IMG/VR virus record: IMGVR_UViG_2703718811_000001
Coordinates: 1 to 6,126 of that record
From: a virus
Taxonomy: Duplodnaviria; Heunggongvirae; Uroviricota; Caudoviricetes
Length of the DNA stretch: 6,126 bases
Direction: 5' to 3' (one strand)
In this document: in pieces, positions 1 to 6,126 of the stretch
Layout: every line of letters begins with the position of its first letter
How positions within the stretch are numbered: the first letter of the stretch is position 1
The notes under the pieces: model-generated
Database searches by the model: none
Told to the model about the DNA's origin: nothing
Seen by the model: the letters and a program-made list of their open reading frames with translations, nothing else
Program-made: the position numbers and the translations under genes

Positions 1-104
1 GCAGAAGCAGAAAAAGCTTATTATGCTTCCATCGGAAACAATGATCTGGCAGCCTGAGTTCACAGATAAAACTCTCTCCAGGAAAATCGGGGCGGTTCAA
101 ACTG
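1..104. repeat. Left copy of a 104-bp terminal inverted repeat; pairs with 6020-6123 (102/104 identical, mismatches at 73 and 100)
   Basis: The reverse complement of 6064-6123 equals 1-60 exactly. Alignment continues to position 104, then diverges. The repeat carries the last 14 codons and 3' flank of the outward-facing ORF at 60-335. Confidence 0.85.
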
Positions 105-335
105 CTCAGCGGCTTTTTCCACCCACGGCCTGATATTGCTGTACGGCGGGTTATTCCAGATTGCACCGTGGCTTATCCACTCAGAATTTAGCGCGTCGTC
201 GGCCTCAGTTAACCAGTGAGCGCACAGAGCATTTTTGTCGCTCGCTGCCGAATCCAGCCAGAATCCAAACTCAATACGCTCCTGTTCGGCAAAGTTACCT
301 CTGCCGAAGTTGAGTATTTTTGCTGTATTTGTCAT
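60..335 (-). CDS. Truncated DNA N6-adenine methyltransferase-like protein (phage Dam family N-terminal part, 91 aa); C-terminal 14 aa come from the terminal repeat
   Basis: ORF with SD AGGAG 6 nt upstream of the ATG at 333-335. The protein contains EFGFWLDSAAS, NALC and WNNPPYS (an NPPY catalytic motif), typical of small phage N6-adenine methyltransferases. It stops at about 91 aa, roughly half the length I recall for such enzymes, directly after entering the repeat. Confidence 0.5.
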   Translation of the reverse strand: MTNTAKILNFGRGNFAEQERIEFGFWLDSAASDKNALCAHWLTEADDALNSEWISHGAIWNNPPYSNIRPWVEKAAEQFEPPRFSWREFYL

Positions 336-338
336 AAT
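310..338 (+). promoter_or_regulatory. pO-like promoter for oop RNA (-35 TTGAGT 310-315, -10 CATAAT 333-338, 17-bp spacer)
   Basis: Sigma70-like hexamers sit at the correct distance upstream of the oop-like transcript start near 346. Confidence 0.45.
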
Positions 339-345
339 GACTCCT

Positions 346-421
346 GTGGATTGATCCAGTAATTCCCTCAGAATTGCATATCAATTTGCTTAGAGTCCCC
401 GGCGGCCACCGGGGATTTTTT
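346..421 (+). ncRNA. oop: OOP-like antisense RNA overlapping the 3' end of cII, ending in an intrinsic terminator (stem 397-402/409-414, T-run 416-421)
   Basis: The sequence GTGGATTGATCCAGTAAT...CCCCGGCGGCCACCGGGGATTTTTT closely resembles lambda oop RNA as recalled (GUUGAUAGAUCCAGUAAU...GCCGCCGGGCGUUUUUU). It lies antisense to the cII 3' end and finishes with a GC stem followed by a T-run. Confidence 0.7.
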
Positions 422-664
422 CTTTGTGATTCCATCAAGCGCATACTTAAAAGCCCTACTAATCGGACTGATGTCTGATGCCATTCCGAAAGCACACAAG
501 ACCGAAGCAATAAATCTCCAGTCCGTTCTGCTTATCTTCGATTCATGACAGCCAATCATCTTTGCCAGACCGCGCTGGGTAAGCGTTGACAGGTTGATGA
601 GTAAATCAGTTTCAGCGCGATCAATTTCTCGCTGTGATAGTTTGCTGTAACTTGTTTGTTCCAT
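368..664 (-). CDS. cII: cII-like transcriptional activator (98 aa), diverged from lambda CII
   Basis: Position matches lambda (downstream of cro and nutR). The C-terminus KKKSPVAAGDSKQIDMQF resembles lambda CII KKRPAATERSEQIQMEF, and a central SKISR helix-turn-helix-like segment matches lambda SQISR. Length is 98 aa against 97 in lambda. Confidence 0.85.
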   Translation of the reverse strand: MEQTSYSKLSQREIDRAETDLLINLSTLTQRGLAKMIGCHESKISRTDWRFIASVLCAFGMASDISPISRAFKYALDGITKKKSPVAAGDSKQIDMQF

Positions 665-674
665 TTCTTAAGAT
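642..674 (+). promoter_or_regulatory. pRE-like promoter: CII-binding direct repeat TTGC-N6-TTGT (642-655) inside the first cII codons, putative -10 TAAGAT (669-674)
   Basis: The TTGC(N6)TTGC-type repeat overlaps the 5' end of cII on the opposite strand, as in lambda pRE. It would drive antisense-cro and cI transcription. Confidence 0.45.
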
Positions 675-749
675 TTCCAATAGTGAATAGCTAGTTGAAA
701 GGTATGCGTGGAAACGCATATGGCCTTAGTTGGTCAGATATATTGGGAC

Positions 750-795
750 TCGCTTTGTCAGCGACGTAGGACGAATGTCCATTGTGAAAAGAGCG
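750..795 (-). promoter_or_regulatory. nutR: boxA-like CGCTCTTTT (787-795) and boxB hairpin TCGCTGACAAAGCGA (750-764)
   Basis: On the minus strand, between the cro stop and cII, lies CGCTCTTTT followed by a 5-bp stem and GACAA loop. The boxB matches the P22-type GCGCUGACAAAGCGC rather than lambda GCCCUGAAAAAGGGC. The 22-nt boxA-boxB spacer is longer than in lambda. Confidence 0.6.
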
Positions 796-802
796 GTGTT
801 AC

Positions 803-1003
803 TTATGCAGTTGTTTTTTTGTTACTTGGGAAGGGCTTTATTTCTTCCGCATAAACGCTTCCATCAGCGTTTATAGTTAAAAAAATCTTTCGGCCTGCAT
901 GAATGGCCTTGTTAATCGCGCTTTGATATACGCCGAGATCTTTAGCCGTCTTGGTTTGCCCAAAGCGTATTGCATAATCTTTCAGGGTTATGCGTTGTTC
1001 CAT
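803..1003 (-). CDS. cro: Cro repressor (66 aa), near-identical to lambda Cro
   Basis: [66 protein letters not shown] differs from lambda Cro as recalled at two positions (M12I, V55I). SD AAGGAGG precedes the start. Confidence 0.97.
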
Positions 1004-1026
1004 ACAACCTCCTTAGTACAGGCAAT

Positions 1027-1055
1027 CATTATCACCGCTAGAGGTATAATAGTCA
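1027..1055 (-). promoter_or_regulatory. PR promoter (-35 TTGACT, -10 GATAAT on the minus strand) driving cro-cII
   Basis: The reverse complement of 1027-1055 reads TTGACTATTATACCTCTAGCGGTGATAAT, matching lambda PR architecture. Confidence 0.85.
1030..1046. promoter_or_regulatory. Operator OR1 (TATCACCGCTAGAGGTA), one substitution from lambda OR1
   Basis: 17-bp CI/Cro operator; lambda OR1 as recalled is TATCACCGCCAGAGGTA, so position 10 is C to T here. Confidence 0.85.
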
Positions 1056-1070
1056 ACACGCACGGTGTTA
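1054..1070. promoter_or_regulatory. Operator OR2 (CAACACGCACGGTGTTA), identical to lambda OR2
   Basis: 17-bp operator, reverse complement TAACACCGTGCGTGTTG. Confidence 0.9.
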
Positions 1071-1097
1071 GATATTTATCCCTTGCGGTGATAGATT
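1069..1097 (+). promoter_or_regulatory. PRM promoter (-35 TAGATA 1069-1074, -10 TAGATT 1092-1097); leaderless cI mRNA
   Basis: Hexamers match lambda PRM with 17-bp spacing. The cI ATG at 1104 lies 7 nt after the -10, consistent with a leaderless transcript. Confidence 0.85.
1077..1093. promoter_or_regulatory. Operator OR3 (TATCCCTTGCGGTGATA), identical to lambda OR3
   Basis: 17-bp operator, reverse complement TATCACCGCAAGGGATA. Confidence 0.9.
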
Positions 1098-1100
1098 TAA

Positions 1101-1817
<717 letters not shown>

Positions 1818-1826
1818 GGAGGATAG

Positions 1827-2168
1827 ATGGCGTTCACTGACCTTGAATATCAAGCGGTCAAAAAAGAAGTTCACCAATTCATTGAAAGCATAAGGCCGCC
1901 TGAACATATCCGCAATGAACTGGATATTGTTTATAGCATCAATGACCAAACGATAGATATCGGCGAACAGCGCCCCGTGTGGCAGGGCAACCCAGGTGAA
2001 ACAAACATCCTGCCATCAGCAAGAATCAAGTACATACGTTCTCTGGATAGATGGAAAATCTATTGGATGCGGAAGGATATGAAATGGCATCAGTACAGTA
2101 CTGAACTTTCGCTGACTGATGCGCTTGAGCTTGTGCGTGCTGACCCGGATTGCTGCTTCTTCGGATGA
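1827..2168 (+). CDS. Hypothetical protein (113 aa), first gene of the cluster in the rex position
   Basis: SD GAGGAGG lies 4 nt upstream of the ATG, 9 nt after the cI stop, so it is co-transcribed with cI from PRM/pRE. No recognisable motif. It is not RexA (279 aa in lambda). Confidence 0.7.
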   Translation: MAFTDLEYQAVKKEVHQFIESIRPPEHIRNELDIVYSINDQTIDIGEQRPVWQGNPGETNILPSARIKYIRSLDRWKIYWMRKDMKWHQYSTELSLTDALELVRADPDCCFFG

Positions 2169-2169
2169 G

Positions 2170-2188
2170 TGAAGAGACGTTTGGATGA
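2170..2188 (+). repeat. Direct repeat copy 2: duplicate of the cI 3' terminus (TGAAGAGACGTTTGGATGA), would encode EETFG-stop
   Basis: 18/19 identical to 1799-1817, placed immediately after the stop of the 113-aa ORF. Confidence 0.85.
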
Positions 2189-2238
2189 TGGATGGTCGCA
2201 GAGATGCTCGTAGAGCATACAGCGATGCAGGAGAATTT

Positions 2239-2673
2239 ATGGCACTTAATTTAGAAAGAATATCTTTTATAACCCCATTTGATAGCAGCGAAGAACCCAA
2301 CCAACCGACGCTTAATTTTACATGCAATGAATTTCCTGCGCGGCTATCAATTGATTTCAGGGTTGGTATGATCGGGTTGAAACCAAATTCAAGATATAAT
2401 TTGGGTATTATGGTAATCCCCGCGCACCTAATTATAAAAAAAGGTGAGGAAATTCAATTCCCTGACGGCTCTTCGGAATCAGTTTCACTTTTCATCGATA
2501 CGAAAGATAGCCATTTTGAAACAGGGGTTGGCGGACAGGTAATAGTAACATTGAAAGAAATTAGGGTCCCAGCTAAAGGGCTATATAGTGTTATAGGGAT
2601 ATTGCAAGATAATGAAGACCCTAAAAATGAACTTCATAAAAATGAATCATTTTTCACCGTAGAGCTATTATGA
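2239..2673 (+). CDS. Hypothetical soluble protein (144 aa from the ATG at 2239; in-frame alternative start at 2185 gives 162 aa)
   Basis: SD AGGAGA at 2229-2234 precedes the ATG at 2239, whereas the ATGs at 2185/2188 have no SD and lie inside the duplicated cI terminus. No transmembrane segment. The stop overlaps the next gene's start as ATGA at 2670-2673. Confidence 0.65.
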   Translation: MALNLERISFITPFDSSEEPNQPTLNFTCNEFPARLSIDFRVGMIGLKPNSRYNLGIMVIPAHLIIKKGEEIQFPDGSSESVSLFIDTKDSHFETGVGGQVIVTLKEIRVPAKGLYSVIGILQDNEDPKNELHKNESFFTVELL

Positions 2674-3290
2674 GTGACGACAGTAATTTAAATAATCATG
2701 GAAAGCAAGACACCAACATATCTGAAAGCCGGAGGTTGAAGGTTGTTGGCGGTTCCGATTTTGAGGCTGAATTTGATAATTCTCCCACCAAGGTGCAAAA
2801 TAATTACATAAAACCGCCACAAACGGAGGAAGAAGTGGGAACGATCAGCAGAGAGGAACTTGATGCTCGCTTAGCTGCTAATAAAGCAGAGATGGAGTCT
2901 ATTGCTTCTTCCATTAGGGCTGACATGGCTCTATCTCGTGAAAGCGTTAATGTCCAATTTGCATCACTTAATGCAGCCATAAGCTCTCTATCGTCCAAGA
3001 TCGATGGAAAGATGGATAGCGCTGCTGGCGATATAAAAGCAATTAATGGGAGATTCGAAGGAATTCAAGGACAAATAACAGGGGTTAATACCGCAATTAG
3101 TGGTGTTCAGTCGGGTATTTCTATACGATTAGCCATTTTTAGTGTCATTATCGCTGTAATAGTTGCTATTCCCGGGCTGGTATCAGCTTTAAAGTCAGAC
3201 CACGCACCTTTGCAACAGCCTTCCACTTTGCAAGCGCCGCCACAAAATACCCAGCCAACAGACAACAAAAAAATCACTCCCCAGCATTAA
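2670..3290 (+). CDS. Tail-anchored membrane protein (206 aa): polar N-terminus, long coiled-coil-like region, one C-terminal transmembrane helix, Pro/Gln-rich tail
   Basis: Translationally coupled to the upstream gene. Heptad-like Ala/Ser/Ile/Leu-rich region (ELDARLAANKAEMESIASSIRADMALSRE...), a 21-residue hydrophobic stretch LAIFSVIIAVIVAIPGLVSAL near the C-terminus, then APLQQPSTLQAPPQNTQPTDNKK. It is not RexB (four transmembrane segments in lambda). Confidence 0.75.
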   Translation: MSDDSNLNNHGKQDTNISESRRLKVVGGSDFEAEFDNSPTKVQNNYIKPPQTEEEVGTISREELDARLAANKAEMESIASSIRADMALSRESVNVQFASLNAAISSLSSKIDGKMDSAAGDIKAINGRFEGIQGQITGVNTAISGVQSGISIRLAIFSVIIAVIVAIPGLVSALKSDHAPLQQPSTLQAPPQNTQPTDNKKITPQH

Positions 3291-3298
3291 CGCATTAA

Positions 3299-3320
3299 CC
3301 CGGCCTCAGCGCCGGGTTTT
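3299..3320 (+). terminator. Intrinsic terminator ending the cI-cluster operon (stem CCCGGC/GCCGGG, T-run)
   Basis: CCCGGCCTCAGCGCCGGGTTTT sits 9 nt after the stop at 3290. Confidence 0.7.
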
Positions 3321-3475
3321 CTTTGCCTCACGTTCGCCCACCTAAAAACACATAACCAATTGTATTTATTTGAAAATAAATAGATACAACTCACTAAACA
3401 TCGCAATTCTGATCTCTCGCCCTCCAAAGCAATACCCCAATTCAAAAAATAAATTCATATAAAAAACATACAGAT

Positions 3476-3492
3476 AACCATCTGCGGTGATG
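3476..3492. promoter_or_regulatory. Operator OL3 (reverse complement CATCACCGCAGATGGTT; one mismatch to lambda OL3)
   Basis: 17-bp operator adjacent to OL2 and OL1. The flanking AT-rich sequence 3380-3475 matches the lambda pL upstream region as recalled. Confidence 0.8.
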
Positions 3493-3495
3493 AAT

Positions 3496-3512
3496 TATCT
3501 CTAGCGGTGTTG
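3496..3512. promoter_or_regulatory. Operator OL2 (TATCTCTAGCGGTGTTG; lambda has TATCTCTGGCGGTGTTG)
   Basis: 17-bp operator overlapping the pL -35, with one G to A substitution. Confidence 0.85.
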
Positions 3513-3538
3513 ACATAAATACCACTGGCGGTGATACT
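3510..3538 (+). promoter_or_regulatory. pL promoter (-35 TTGACA 3510-3515, -10 GATACT 3533-3538)
   Basis: Matches lambda pL TTGACATAAATACCACTGGCGGTGATACT with 17-bp spacing. Confidence 0.9.
3520..3536. promoter_or_regulatory. Operator OL1 (TACCACTGGCGGTGATA), identical to lambda OL1
   Basis: 17-bp operator between the pL -35 and -10. Confidence 0.9.
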
Positions 3539-3606
3539 AAACACATCAGCAGGACGCACTACTCACCAGGGCGGTGAATATACAACGATTCGAATATGAA
3601 TCTACG

Positions 3607-3621
3607 GCGCTGACAAAGCGC
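3607..3621 (+). promoter_or_regulatory. nutL boxB hairpin (GCGCTGACAAAGCGC), P22 type; no canonical boxA seen upstream
   Basis: 5-bp GC stem with GACAA loop in the pL leader about 130 nt before N, the same boxB type as nutR at 750-764. Lambda identity ends near 3558, just after the pL start. Confidence 0.65.
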
Positions 3622-3749
3622 AATAACCAAAGTGAACTTTGGGGTGAATGCAGAAGCTAACCTTCTCGGCGGAGGCGCTTTGCAATGATTACGCGACCGG
3701 AGTTAGTCGCCCGGCTGTATTCACCACCAAAGTTCATCAGGAGGTCTAT

Positions 3750-4133
3750 ATGACACGCAGAACTCAGTTCAAAGGCAATTCACGTTCTCGTCGTCGTGAG
3801 CGTTTAAAGGCAAAGGCATTAGCTAACGGCGTACTGGCCCGCGAAGAAGCAATAAGTTCAGAAGTATTACACCGCCCTACTCTAAGCAGAGCGCAGATTC
3901 AGGCTAAAGGTACTCACGAAACGCCTGAGCGCATAGAAGACGCTAAGCCAATTAAGTTCATGGCACAGGACGTGATCTGGCAACAGAAAGAATACAGACG
4001 CAATCTGGAGCGAGCGGCCATTGTGTACGCGAATGAGTTTGGACATAAGCAACCAGAAACTGGTGTATGTCTTCCAAACGTAGCCATTTACGCGGCAGGC
4101 TACCGGAAATCAAAACAACTGACGGCGAGGTGA
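3750..4133 (+). CDS. N: N-type transcription antiterminator (127 aa) with arginine-rich motif, P22 gene 24 / Stx-phage class
   Basis: Strong SD AGGAGG 5 nt before the ATG at 3750. N-terminal arginine-rich motif GNSRSRRRERLKAKA resembles the P22 N motif GNAKTRRHERRRKLA, and the C-terminus LPNVAIYAAGYRKSKQLTAR resembles the P22 N C-terminus as recalled. It is the first gene after pL/nutL, and its boxB type matches. Confidence 0.85.
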   Translation: MTRRTQFKGNSRSRRRERLKAKALANGVLAREEAISSEVLHRPTLSRAQIQAKGTHETPERIEDAKPIKFMAQDVIWQQKEYRRNLERAAIVYANEFGHKQPETGVCLPNVAIYAAGYRKSKQLTAR

Positions 4134-4183
4134 CTTGTGTTGGTCGCCAGAAAATGAAATTAGGCAGCAAACCACTTATTTGA
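4121..4183 (+). pseudogene. Out-of-frame relic of a lambda-type N C-terminus (DGEVTCVGRQKMKLGSKPLI-stop) overlapping the N stop
   Basis: The -1 frame across the N stop encodes GE-VTCVGRQKMKLGSKPLI, which resembles the lambda N C-terminus GERGITCSGRQKIKGKSIPLI as recalled, and ends at TGA 4181-4183. Confidence 0.4.
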
Positions 4184-4191
4184 GGTGAGAT

Positions 4192-4662
4192 ATGACAAAA
4201 TCATGGAGCGTACCTTTTCCTGAATCAGAAACTGAACATGATGGAATGCCTGTTTTCTGGAGATTCCAGGCGACAGTTGAAGAAGATGGGATAAAAATAT
4301 TCGCACTTCAATATATAGCTTTTCATCAGACAGAGCATTATGCATGGTTGGTTCCTGCGCATTGGATTGTTAATTTTAAACCAGCACCAAATCAGTGGTT
4401 ACAGGAATGGAAACAAAGGAGAAATAGATATGCAATTAAGAAAGTAGCAAAAAATGCAGAAAGATCTTTTGCATTCCCAACGAAGAAACTTGCTATTGAA
4501 AGTTTATTGCGCCGGAAGAAATACCATTTAATGAGAATCAAACAAGATTTGGCTGTTGTATCAACTCTTGTTGATGGGATGAAGAATATTGATACATCAA
4601 CACCAGATATTGAATATAACTTTGGACACAACCAAGAAACAGAAAACTGGGTATTTTATTAG
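4192..4662 (+). CDS. Hypothetical protein (156 aa) in the position of ral/sieB
   Basis: SD GAGGTGAG precedes the ATG at 4192. Basic, Trp-rich, no transmembrane segment. No resemblance to lambda Ral (66 aa). Confidence 0.7.
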   Translation: MTKSWSVPFPESETEHDGMPVFWRFQATVEEDGIKIFALQYIAFHQTEHYAWLVPAHWIVNFKPAPNQWLQEWKQRRNRYAIKKVAKNAERSFAFPTKKLAIESLLRRKKYHLMRIKQDLAVVSTLVDGMKNIDTSTPDIEYNFGHNQETENWVFY

Positions 4663-4676
4663 TACGAATAAGCACT

Positions 4677-4704
4677 GTGTATTCATTCCAACGAGTGAAT
4701 ACAC
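4677..4704 (+). other. Hairpin (9-bp stem GTGTATTCA/TGAATACAC, 10-nt loop) in the intergenic region; possible RNA processing or attenuation structure
   Basis: Perfect inverted repeat seen in the sequence, with no T-run after it. Confidence 0.4.
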
Positions 4705-4766
4705 GGAGCAATGTCGCTCGTAACTAAACAGGAGCCGACTTGTTCTGATTGTTGGAAATCTTCTTT

Positions 4767-4792
4767 GCCCTCCAATGTGAGGGCGATTTTTT
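4767..4792 (+). terminator. Intrinsic terminator (stem GCCCTC/GAGGGC, T-run 4787-4792), tL2-like position
   Basis: GCCCTCCAATGTGAGGGCGATTTTTT between the 156-aa ORF and the next gene. Read-through would require N antitermination. Confidence 0.65.
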
Positions 4793-4812
4793 ATCTATGA
4801 GGATATGAATAG

Positions 4813-5181
4813 ATGTCAAACATCAAAAAATACATCATTGATTACGACTGGAAAGCATCAATAGAAATTGAAATCGACCATGACCTAATGACAGAGGAAA
4901 AACTTCACCAGATTAATAATTTCTGGTCAGACTCTGAATACCGACTCAATAAACACGGCGCTGTATTAAATGCTGTATTAATCATGCTGGCGCAACATGC
5001 TCTGCTTATAGCAATTTCAAAAGACCTAAATGCATATGGTGTTGTTTGTGAGTTCGACTGGAATGATGGAAATGGTCAGGAAGGATGGCCTCCAATGGAT
5101 GGTAGCGAAGGAATAAGAATTACCGATATCGATACATCAGGAATATTTGATTCAGATGATATGACTATCAAGGCCGACTAA
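4813..5181 (+). CDS. Hypothetical acidic protein (122 aa), Ea10-like by position and size
   Basis: It lies between N and cIII, where lambda has ea10, which I recall as also 122 codons. The sequence itself is not recognised. SD GAGGA lies upstream. Confidence 0.6.
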   Translation: MSNIKKYIIDYDWKASIEIEIDHDLMTEEKLHQINNFWSDSEYRLNKHGAVLNAVLIMLAQHALLIAISKDLNAYGVVCEFDWNDGNGQEGWPPMDGSEGIRITDIDTSGIFDSDDMTIKAD

Positions 5182-5256
5182 GTGCGGCTTTACCGCATAC
5201 CAATAATGTTTCACTCGAGGCGTTTTCGTTATGCAATCAAATATAAGGAGTTACCC

Positions 5257-5391
5257 ATGATGCACTTTCAGCTCGCGGGTAGCGGCGTCATGTCCGCTTT
5301 CTACCCGCACGAATCTGAATTATCACGACGAGTTAAACAATTAATCAGAGCAGCAAAGAAACAACTGGAGGCGTTATGCGCAATGAAATAG
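5257..5391 (+). CDS. cIII: cIII-like protein (44 aa; FtsH inhibitor family)
   Basis: SD AAGGAG 6 nt before the ATG at 5257. The segment QLAGSGVMSAFYPHESELSRRVKQLIRAAKKQLEAL resembles the lambda CIII core AIAGWPVAGCPSESLLERITRKLRDGWKRLIDIL. The long ORF-track start at 5182 lacks an SD. Confidence 0.7.
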   Translation: MMHFQLAGSGVMSAFYPHESELSRRVKQLIRAAKKQLEALCAMK

Positions 5392-5528
5392 CCATCAATC
5401 ACCAGATGCTTCGTGCGGCACAAAACAAAGCAGTAATAGCTCGATTTATTGGTGATTCCAAAATGTGGCTTGAAGCAAATAAAGCGATGAAATCAGCTAT
5501 CAACCTTCCGTGGTATCGCAGGAAATGA
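5376..5528 (+). CDS. kil: Kil-like small protein (50 aa), overlapping the cIII 3' end
   Basis: SD GGAGG precedes the ATG at 5376. It overlaps the cIII-like gene by 16 bp, as kil overlaps cIII in lambda. The motif ARFIGDSKMW resembles lambda Kil (ATFIGDEKMF) as recalled from memory. It falls below the ORF-track length cutoff. Confidence 0.5.
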   Translation: MRNEIAINHQMLRAAQNKAVIARFIGDSKMWLEANKAMKSAINLPWYRRK

Positions 5529-5632
5529 GTTTTACAGATAACTGGTCAGACGAAGAATTCATTCGTCAGATGAAAGAAATGCTCAATCAGCACAAAGAAC
5601 AGGAGAAAGATGATGATTCTGACTCTGAATGA
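5525..5632 (+). CDS. Possible small acidic ORF (35 aa), ATGA-coupled to the kil-like gene
   Basis: ATG at 5525-5527 overlaps the upstream TGA at 5526-5528. No strong SD, and it overlaps the next gene by 23 bp. Confidence 0.25.
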   Translation: MSFTDNWSDEEFIRQMKEMLNQHKEQEKDDDSDSE

Positions 5633-5921
5633 TAAGCGTGAAATATCGCAAATCATCGCAAGTTTTACCGATGATGATTACGAACGAATCAACAGTGAAG
5701 TTGATCGCCTCTGCAAACGTTGCGACCCAATAAGCGAAATGCTTCGCTCATATAAACCAGATGAACACACTAAGGACGCTATCGACTGGCTGGAAGATGA
5801 TGACTGTAACTATCAGGAAAAAGCCGCTGAATGGTTCTGGGATGCAATAACCGAAAGAGTTAAGGCTGAATATGCCTTCGCAATATTCAAACGCAGACAT
5901 ATTTATGGAGAAGCTGCATGA
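5610..5921 (+). CDS. Hypothetical acidic protein (103 aa)
   Basis: SD AGGAG at 5601-5605 precedes the ATG at 5610. It occupies the region where lambda has gam, but the sequence is unrelated to Gam as recalled. Confidence 0.65.
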   Translation: MMILTLNDKREISQIIASFTDDDYERINSEVDRLCKRCDPISEMLRSYKPDEHTKDAIDWLEDDDCNYQEKAAEWFWDAITERVKAEYAFAIFKRRHIYGEAA

Positions 5922-6064
5922 GCAATATCGTTGAATTCGTTAAACAGCAGGAGCAGTTATTCTGCGGAGCATTGACTGAACAGACGGTGACATGGGCTAA
6001 GGAAAGCCAGTTTGCAATTCAGTATGAACCGCCCCGATTTTCCTGGAGAGTGTTTTATCTGTGA
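5918..6064 (+). CDS. Short ORF (48 aa) whose last 14 codons and 3' flank form the right terminal inverted repeat
   Basis: ATG overlaps the upstream stop (ATGA at 5918-5921), with SD GGAG 7 nt upstream. It ends YEPPRFSWRVFYL, nearly the same as the C-terminus of the ORF at 60-335 (FEPPRFSWREFYL). Confidence 0.4.
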   Translation: MSNIVEFVKQQEQLFCGALTEQTVTWAKESQFAIQYEPPRFSWRVFYL

Positions 6065-6123
6065 ACTCAGGCTGCCAGATCATTGTTTCCGATGGAAGCA
6101 TAATAAGCTTTTTCTGCTTCTGC
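6020..6123. repeat. Right copy of the 104-bp terminal inverted repeat (pairs with 1-104)
   Basis: Reverse-complement identity with 1-104 at 102/104 positions. Confidence 0.85.
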
Positions 6124-6126
6124 CGG

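Follow-up and report, generated by a model that had tools for sequence, protein, structure and literature searches.

A cassette-borne gene behind N in lambdoid Stx phages encodes a basic protein of a divergent phage family that may bind nucleic acids early in lytic growth

In phage lambda, the antiterminator gene N is followed by sieB, orf28 and ral. In the prophage DNA analyzed here, the same place is taken by a single open reading frame (ORF) of 156 aa, and the locus thus raises the question what this ORF encodes and whether its product is directed against the host, against a superinfecting phage or toward the phage's own nucleic acids. A preliminary description had proposed anti-restriction, exclusion or host takeover, a functional suggestion which, as we read it, was drawn from gene position only. 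The window, by which we mean the whole stretch of 6,126 nucleotides that was analyzed (positions 1 to 6,126 of IMG/VR record IMGVR_UViG_2703718811_000001), comprises the immunity and early-left region of a lambdoid prophage, reversed in orientation compared to the lambda map (Table 1). Behind the ea10-like gene, cIII and kil are the next genes. An Rfam scan of the window returned no RNA family.

Table 1. Features of the window and, in the last line, methyltransferase genes near distant relatives of the ORF in other loci.
Feature	Position	Strand	Basis or remark
cII	368-664	-	window gene list
cro	803-1003	-	window gene list
lambda-type cI	1104-1817	+	window gene list
rexAB slot, three ORFs	1827-2168, 2185-2673, 2670-3290		
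terminator of the cI operon	3300-3315		follows the rexAB slot, upstream of pL
pL-type promoter	3510-3538	+	promoter scan; TTGACA, 17 nt, GATACT
nutL	~3555-3620	+	boxA-like CGCACTACTCA and boxB-like hairpin GCGCTGACAAAGCGC (3605-3619)
antiterminator N, 933W/H-19B type, 127 aa	3750-4133	+	Pfam N_peptide E = 2.1e-15; phrog_271; 933W annotation
spacer between N and ORF	4134-4191	+	carries Shine-Dalgarno GAGGTGA (4182-4188)
ORF under study, 156 aa	4192-4662	+	phrog_1636
14-bp hairpin, CAAC loop	4675-4706	+	fold and repeat finder; identical 3' of lambda ral
intrinsic terminator	4765-4792	+	first predicted after pL; homologous to lambda ~33952-33925, upstream of ea10
ea10-like gene (DUF2528)	4813-5181	+	Pfam DUF2528 E = 3.5e-46; lambda ea10 annotation; downstream flank of the slot
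cytosine methyltransferase genes, other loci	L008 8692-9576; L010 4374-6305; L011 9640-10569; L013 3965-4681		

The pL region and the pR/pRM region have operator-like sequence in common (repeats D4 and I2). The nutL of the window aligns with the annotated nutL of 933W as well as with the window's own cro-cII (nutR) region, and the repeat finder pairs it with 751-769 as inverted repeat I4. The regulatory sequences form a mosaic (1030-1093, 3507-3620 and 751-769), in which cI, cro, pL and operators of the lambda type are joined to nutL, nutR and N of the 933W/H-19B type, and the boxB-like hairpin GCGCTGACAAAGCGC is unlike boxB of lambda. With an upstream ATG at 3648 taken as the start, the frame of N would encode 161 aa, and this long form is found in RefSeq for E. 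coli strain OkiPb01678; the 933W record places the start at the ATG at 3750 (127 aa), with an AGGAGG Shine-Dalgarno sequence.

Positions 101-6025 of the window are 100% identical to the intact prophage of strain OkiPb01678. Compared to that prophage, about 2.8 kb with the genes ninB, DUF7301, ren, P and O are absent between the start of the Dam gene and cII (window ~335-368; L007 6253-9082). Since this deletion leaves no replication genes, the fragment is a defective remnant. Its ends (1-104 and 6020-6123) form a 104-nt inverted repeat with 98% complementarity. Each arm cuts a phage ORF short, leaving a Dam-like methyltransferase fragment on one side (60-335, minus strand) and an ORF at 5918-6064 (plus strand) on the other, and both truncated ORFs share the terminal residues EPPRFSWRxFYL. 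Multi-copy sequence that matches the arms occurs across E. coli genomes, and in some strains an IS3-family transposase is annotated under the match; from these matches, the fragment looks like it is bounded by two inverted IS3-family ends. The three genes in the rexAB slot encode a DUF3024 protein with a match to PDC-S43, a candidate defense family of PADLOC (E = 7e-42), a 162-aa protein (phrog_5893) and a 206-aa protein with a hydrophobic C-terminal segment (phrog_5820), and all three are likely prophage-expressed candidate defense genes. The last codons of cI (1799-1817) and those of the DUF3024 gene (2170-2188) lie within the two copies of a 19-nt direct repeat with 95% identity; judged by its position, the repeat looks like the scar or homology patch by which the DUF3024 cassette entered behind cI.

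Before its function is discussed, the ORF itself has to be established. It might have arisen by chance in AT-rich DNA, or the real gene might lie on the opposite strand: the stretch has a GC content of 35.9%, and its minus strand holds several overlapping ORFs of 45-79 aa. However, the ORF begins with ATG and ends with TAG, both as first described, and is preceded by a strong Shine-Dalgarno sequence with 3 nt (4189-4191) to the ATG and 5 nt from the GAGGT core, while the stop codon of N lies 58 nt upstream. If compared to its orthologues from Pectobacterium, Cronobacter and Brenneria (57-63% identity), the differences accumulate in third codon positions (81-105) rather than in second positions (25-34), and dN amounts to 0.20-0.34 while dS is saturated. 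Such asymmetry between codon positions, with dN well below dS in the plus-strand frame, speaks against a chance ORF, as do the full-length orthologues across the Enterobacterales (55-85% identity), the 87 family members from a profile search and the very confident structure model that are described below. In addition, 33 protein clusters match the product at E <= 1e-3. The chance-ORF reading is therefore refuted, and ORF 4192-4662 is a genuine coding gene under purifying selection.

As to its identity, the product is 100% identical to L0079 of phage 933W (ST933Wp19, NP_049479) and, across all 156 residues, 99.4% identical to gp45 of HK97 and to an unnamed ORF of H-19B; the counterpart in phi24B is vb_24B_11c. 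At the DNA level, positions 4100-4810 share 99.3% identity with 933W and many Stx1 and Stx2 phages. The profile of phrog_1636, a family of unknown function, matches residues 1-156 of 156 (E = 2.7e-112), and in agreement with this family the ORF lies in a temperate phage's early-left operon, in the same orientation as N, recombination genes and int. By these matches the gene is the same as 933W L0079 and HK97 gp45, and is thus already catalogued and not new. It is found in most sequenced 933W-related Stx1 and Stx2 phages in addition to HK97, on 260 IMG/VR contigs and in 598 of 5426 complete E. coli genomes (~11%), with up to four copies per genome and the annotation "hypothetical" in every case; its homologues L0079 and gp45 have been annotated in this way for decades. 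The statement of the preliminary description that the protein has no recognizable similarity consequently holds for characterized proteins, and it fails overall, given the identity to L0079 and the near-identity to gp45. Homology to a characterized protein of unrelated function was looked for as well and none was found. Likewise, literature searches on L0079, HK97 gp45 and vb_24B_11c, including the supplements of one accessory-gene screen, yielded no report on the protein. In 933W and HK97, the gene occupies the same place directly after N and is followed by the same hairpin and terminator. In contrast to the homologues in 933W, HK97, phi24B and H-19B, however, the gene in the window stands behind a cI/cro/pL immunity region of the lambda type and is part of a prophage remnant flanked by IS ends.

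The position of the gene can be defined exactly by alignment to lambda. Window positions 4672-4830 are 97.5% identical over 159 nt to lambda 34045-33887, the intergenic region between ral and ea10, both stems included, with the 5' foot of the hairpin as the exact point at which homology to lambda restarts. Since homology resumes exactly there, 4134-4671, i.e., the spacer plus the ORF, is by alignment a precise replacement of lambda sieB-orf28-ral, which bears out the N-proximal ral/sieB slot proposed at first and gives it exact borders. The hairpin reported at 4677-4704 is real and slightly longer, with 14 bp and a 4-nt loop; it is also recovered as inverted repeat I11, and the 153-nt region that contains it folds with z = -4.75. 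Similarly, the intrinsic terminator placed at 4767-4792 has a stem of eight pairs, five of them G-C, at 4765-4786, followed by TTTTTT to 4792. The same scan predicts this terminator both in the window and in lambda, where we take it to be tL2a of Luk and Szybalski. By this alignment, hairpin and terminator are parts of the conserved ral-ea10 backbone of lambda and not features of the ORF. While the hairpin follows ral by about 45 nt in lambda, it follows the ORF by 13 nt in the window, where it marks the recombination junction.

Across 80 loci from IMG/VR, the ORF is almost invariably accompanied by both the 58-nt spacer and the hairpin/terminator, while at least three unrelated N alleles are found upstream and the downstream gene is variable as well. 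Spacer, ORF and the sequence up to the hairpin are, from this comparison, a small mosaic cassette, with a conserved place as first gene after N in E. coli phages. The GC content of the ORF is 35.9% compared to 43.1% for the window, and such a low value is typical of swapped accessory cassettes. The Cronobacter orthologue lies between N and cIII as well; in Pectobacterium and Brenneria prophages, the orthologue stands at the distal end of this operon, immediately ahead of xis-int. Since many lambdoid phages, lambda included, lack the gene, it is dispensable.

With regard to expression, a consensus scan found no plus-strand promoter between pL and the ORF, and pL is the only one upstream of it. 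From pL to 4765, the sole terminator-like match of the scan is a weak 5-bp stem inside N; the spacer between N and the ORF contains neither promoter nor terminator nor significant structure (fold z = 0.08). With no predicted promoter or terminator separating the ORF from N and pL, the ORF is probably co-made with N. It would then stay off in a repressed lysogen and share the first phage messages after infection or induction with N, and its transcription before the first intrinsic terminator would put the product among the earliest phage proteins. The content of the immediate-early transcripts of lambda serves as the comparison here, and we only infer a corresponding timing for the ORF, since promoter and terminator scans by simple consensus are blind to weak promoters and to Rho-dependent termination. 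The simple terminator scan also did not recover tL1 of lambda. In E. coli 14EC001, N is interrupted by an IS3-family element immediately ahead of an orthologue of the ORF (L095 10368-11581), and an insertion at this place would uncouple the orthologue from pL.

The protein has a calculated mass of 18.6 kDa, a pI of 9.07 and a GRAVY of -0.59. No transmembrane segment is predicted (maximum Kyte-Doolittle mean over 19 residues, 0.56), and 16 of the 47 residues at positions 74-120 are K or R. From its composition, the product is a soluble, basic and cytoplasmic protein. Scans of Pfam and NCBIfam assigned it to no family, the PADLOC-DB profiles gave only a noise-level match (Cas1_II, E = 0.018, 12 bits), and the best sequence matches in the PDB, E = 0.13 for the single protein and E = 0.49 for the family profile, are noise as well. 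A profile search of 1.84 billion representative proteins, however, retrieved 87 relatives, which are mostly stand-alone proteins of 130-160 aa with ~20-25% identity; two long matches from this search, P0059 and P0081, consist of low-complexity repeats and were discarded as spurious. Throughout, the relatives fall into PHROG families of unknown function, and a Pfam scan of 74 family members found no family in common. Basic character is retained: among the 64 relatives with less than 40% identity, K/R is kept in at least 60% of the sequences at ten positions, and the median pI is 8.97. At ~20% identity, Y/W23, R24, G33, E46 (95%), T47 (91%), K87 and A101 are near-invariant across the family.

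Structure prediction, which had been suggested as a check, delivered a confident AlphaFold model from the 74-sequence alignment (pLDDT 96.1, pTM 0.83), superseding an earlier run with 22 close homologues only (pLDDT 62). In the model, three long antiparallel strands (19-30, 33-46 and 50-55) are accompanied by two short helices, and there is one further, short strand (83-86) as well as a helix of 33 residues (98-130). Comparison of the model with solved structures, including solved anti-defense proteins and AP2, ribbon-helix-helix and chromo-like DNA or chromatin binders, gave no significant match; the predicted alpha/beta fold thus appears to be without a relative among solved structures. In BFVD, in contrast, 14 uncharacterized viral proteins share the fold (E <= 1e-3), with proteins from phages of the Schitoviridae and Ackermannviridae among them. 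Both are virulent families, and fold relatives in such phages argue for a role in lytic growth. Taken together, the family is phage-only, very divergent and not confined to temperate phages.

These results bear on the suggestion that the protein acts in superinfection exclusion. It might be a SieB-like exclusion or abortive-infection protein, expressed by the prophage to protect the lysogen; after all, the slot is that of lambda sieB, and the immunity region is rich in candidate defense genes such as the DUF3024 gene. SieB of lambda and P22 likewise lies next to N, and it is a hydrophobic protein with its own promoter. The ORF product differs in these respects, being soluble, with no transmembrane segment, and having no predicted promoter of its own between the ORF and pL, which is repressed in a lysogen. 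Moreover, it has no sequence relationship to SieB (hhalign probability 0.7%) and no PADLOC match above noise, and it has fold relatives in virulent phages. Exclusion of the sieB type is consequently disfavored; we regard it as very unlikely, and protection of the lysogen as less likely than a function in host takeover or counter-defense.

The conserved residues allow another interpretation, namely that the protein is a sponge or an enzyme for a small nucleotide-like molecule, such as an immune signal, and does not act on nucleic-acid polymers. This would suit a small, stand-alone, early phage protein, and the near-invariant Y/W23, R24, E46, T47 and K87 resemble a pocket more than a generic DNA-binding surface. 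We consider this interpretation unlikely.

The neighborhoods of the relatives were inspected for further hints. The relatives are encoded in early-left operons, co-oriented with recombination genes and int, and one sequence relative is located in an early small-gene cluster of Pantoea phage LIET2. Among the neighbors are RecT, YqaJ/RecE, SSB, RdgC, HNH proteins and cytosine methyltransferases, while a search across six distant contexts found no conserved neighbor or partner gene. In four unrelated contexts, phage or prophage, a distant family member has a gene for a DNA cytosine methyltransferase a few genes away (Table 1); this proximity may be due to chance, such genes being common in early operons.

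Neighbors of this kind point to the main rival of a host-directed function, a role in the phage's own DNA transactions. The protein could bind phage DNA or RNA as an accessory factor in replication, recombination or transcription and have no anti-host role. Its conserved basic face fits such an activity, and in the window the ORF adjoins a gene historically called ssb/ea10. However, the absence of a fixed neighbor or partner gene argues against this rival, and so do the dispensability of the gene and its low GC content compared to the window, as seen in swapped accessory cassettes. We thus regard it as a possible, though doubtful, explanation.

The methyltransferases could equally be cited for an analogue of Ral, which would alleviate type I or other restriction-modification. 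Ral of lambda occupies exactly this slot between N and ea10, on the same strand, and is transcribed from pL, and early production together with N, as proposed for the ORF, would agree with such a function. On the other hand, the two proteins are not related in sequence (hhalign probability 0.1%), and with 156 aa the ORF product has more than twice the length of Ral (66 aa). Furthermore, the predicted structure matches no solved anti-restriction fold, and the protein is absent from the checked sequences of one accessory-gene screen for counter-defense. In our judgment, anti-restriction of this kind is improbable.

Because the gene is dispensable, shuffled between contexts, probably early, extends beyond temperate phages and has a cytoplasmic and basic product, we favor the reading that it encodes an early lytic protein binding a polyanion, with a lean toward a host-directed function. 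We assign a probability of roughly 0.4 to this interpretation, which is built on sequence comparison. The target of the product would be a polyanion, probably DNA or RNA, and its binding early in lytic development would serve either host takeover or counter-defense. An early lytic, host-directed role seems plausible to us in the light of the combined analysis. However, the conserved basic residues are compatible with nucleic-acid binding and do not prove it, and the near-invariant pair E46-T47 might just as well belong to a ligand-binding or catalytic site. The lack of homology to characterized proteins and the lack of a conserved partner gene that would indicate a pathway also weigh against the polyanion-binding interpretation.

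One might speculate further that L0079/gp45 is the founder of an unrecognized and structurally novel family, which is co-made with N and reaches from lambdoid Stx phages to N4-like phages and Ackermannviridae, and whose members disable a host function or host immunity by binding nucleic acids or a nucleotide ligand. This broader proposal is tentative, and we would rather doubt than expect it.

On present evidence, L0079/gp45 is one among many conserved phage ORFs of unknown function. Nevertheless, it is prevalent in Stx phages, and its position is probably transcribed together with N at the very start of induction. A confident model without a solved relative and a family with members in virulent phages of distant hosts make it a reasonable target for study. 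If the broader proposal were true, the first protein made after N in induced Stx phages would be a new type of host-takeover or counter-defense factor.
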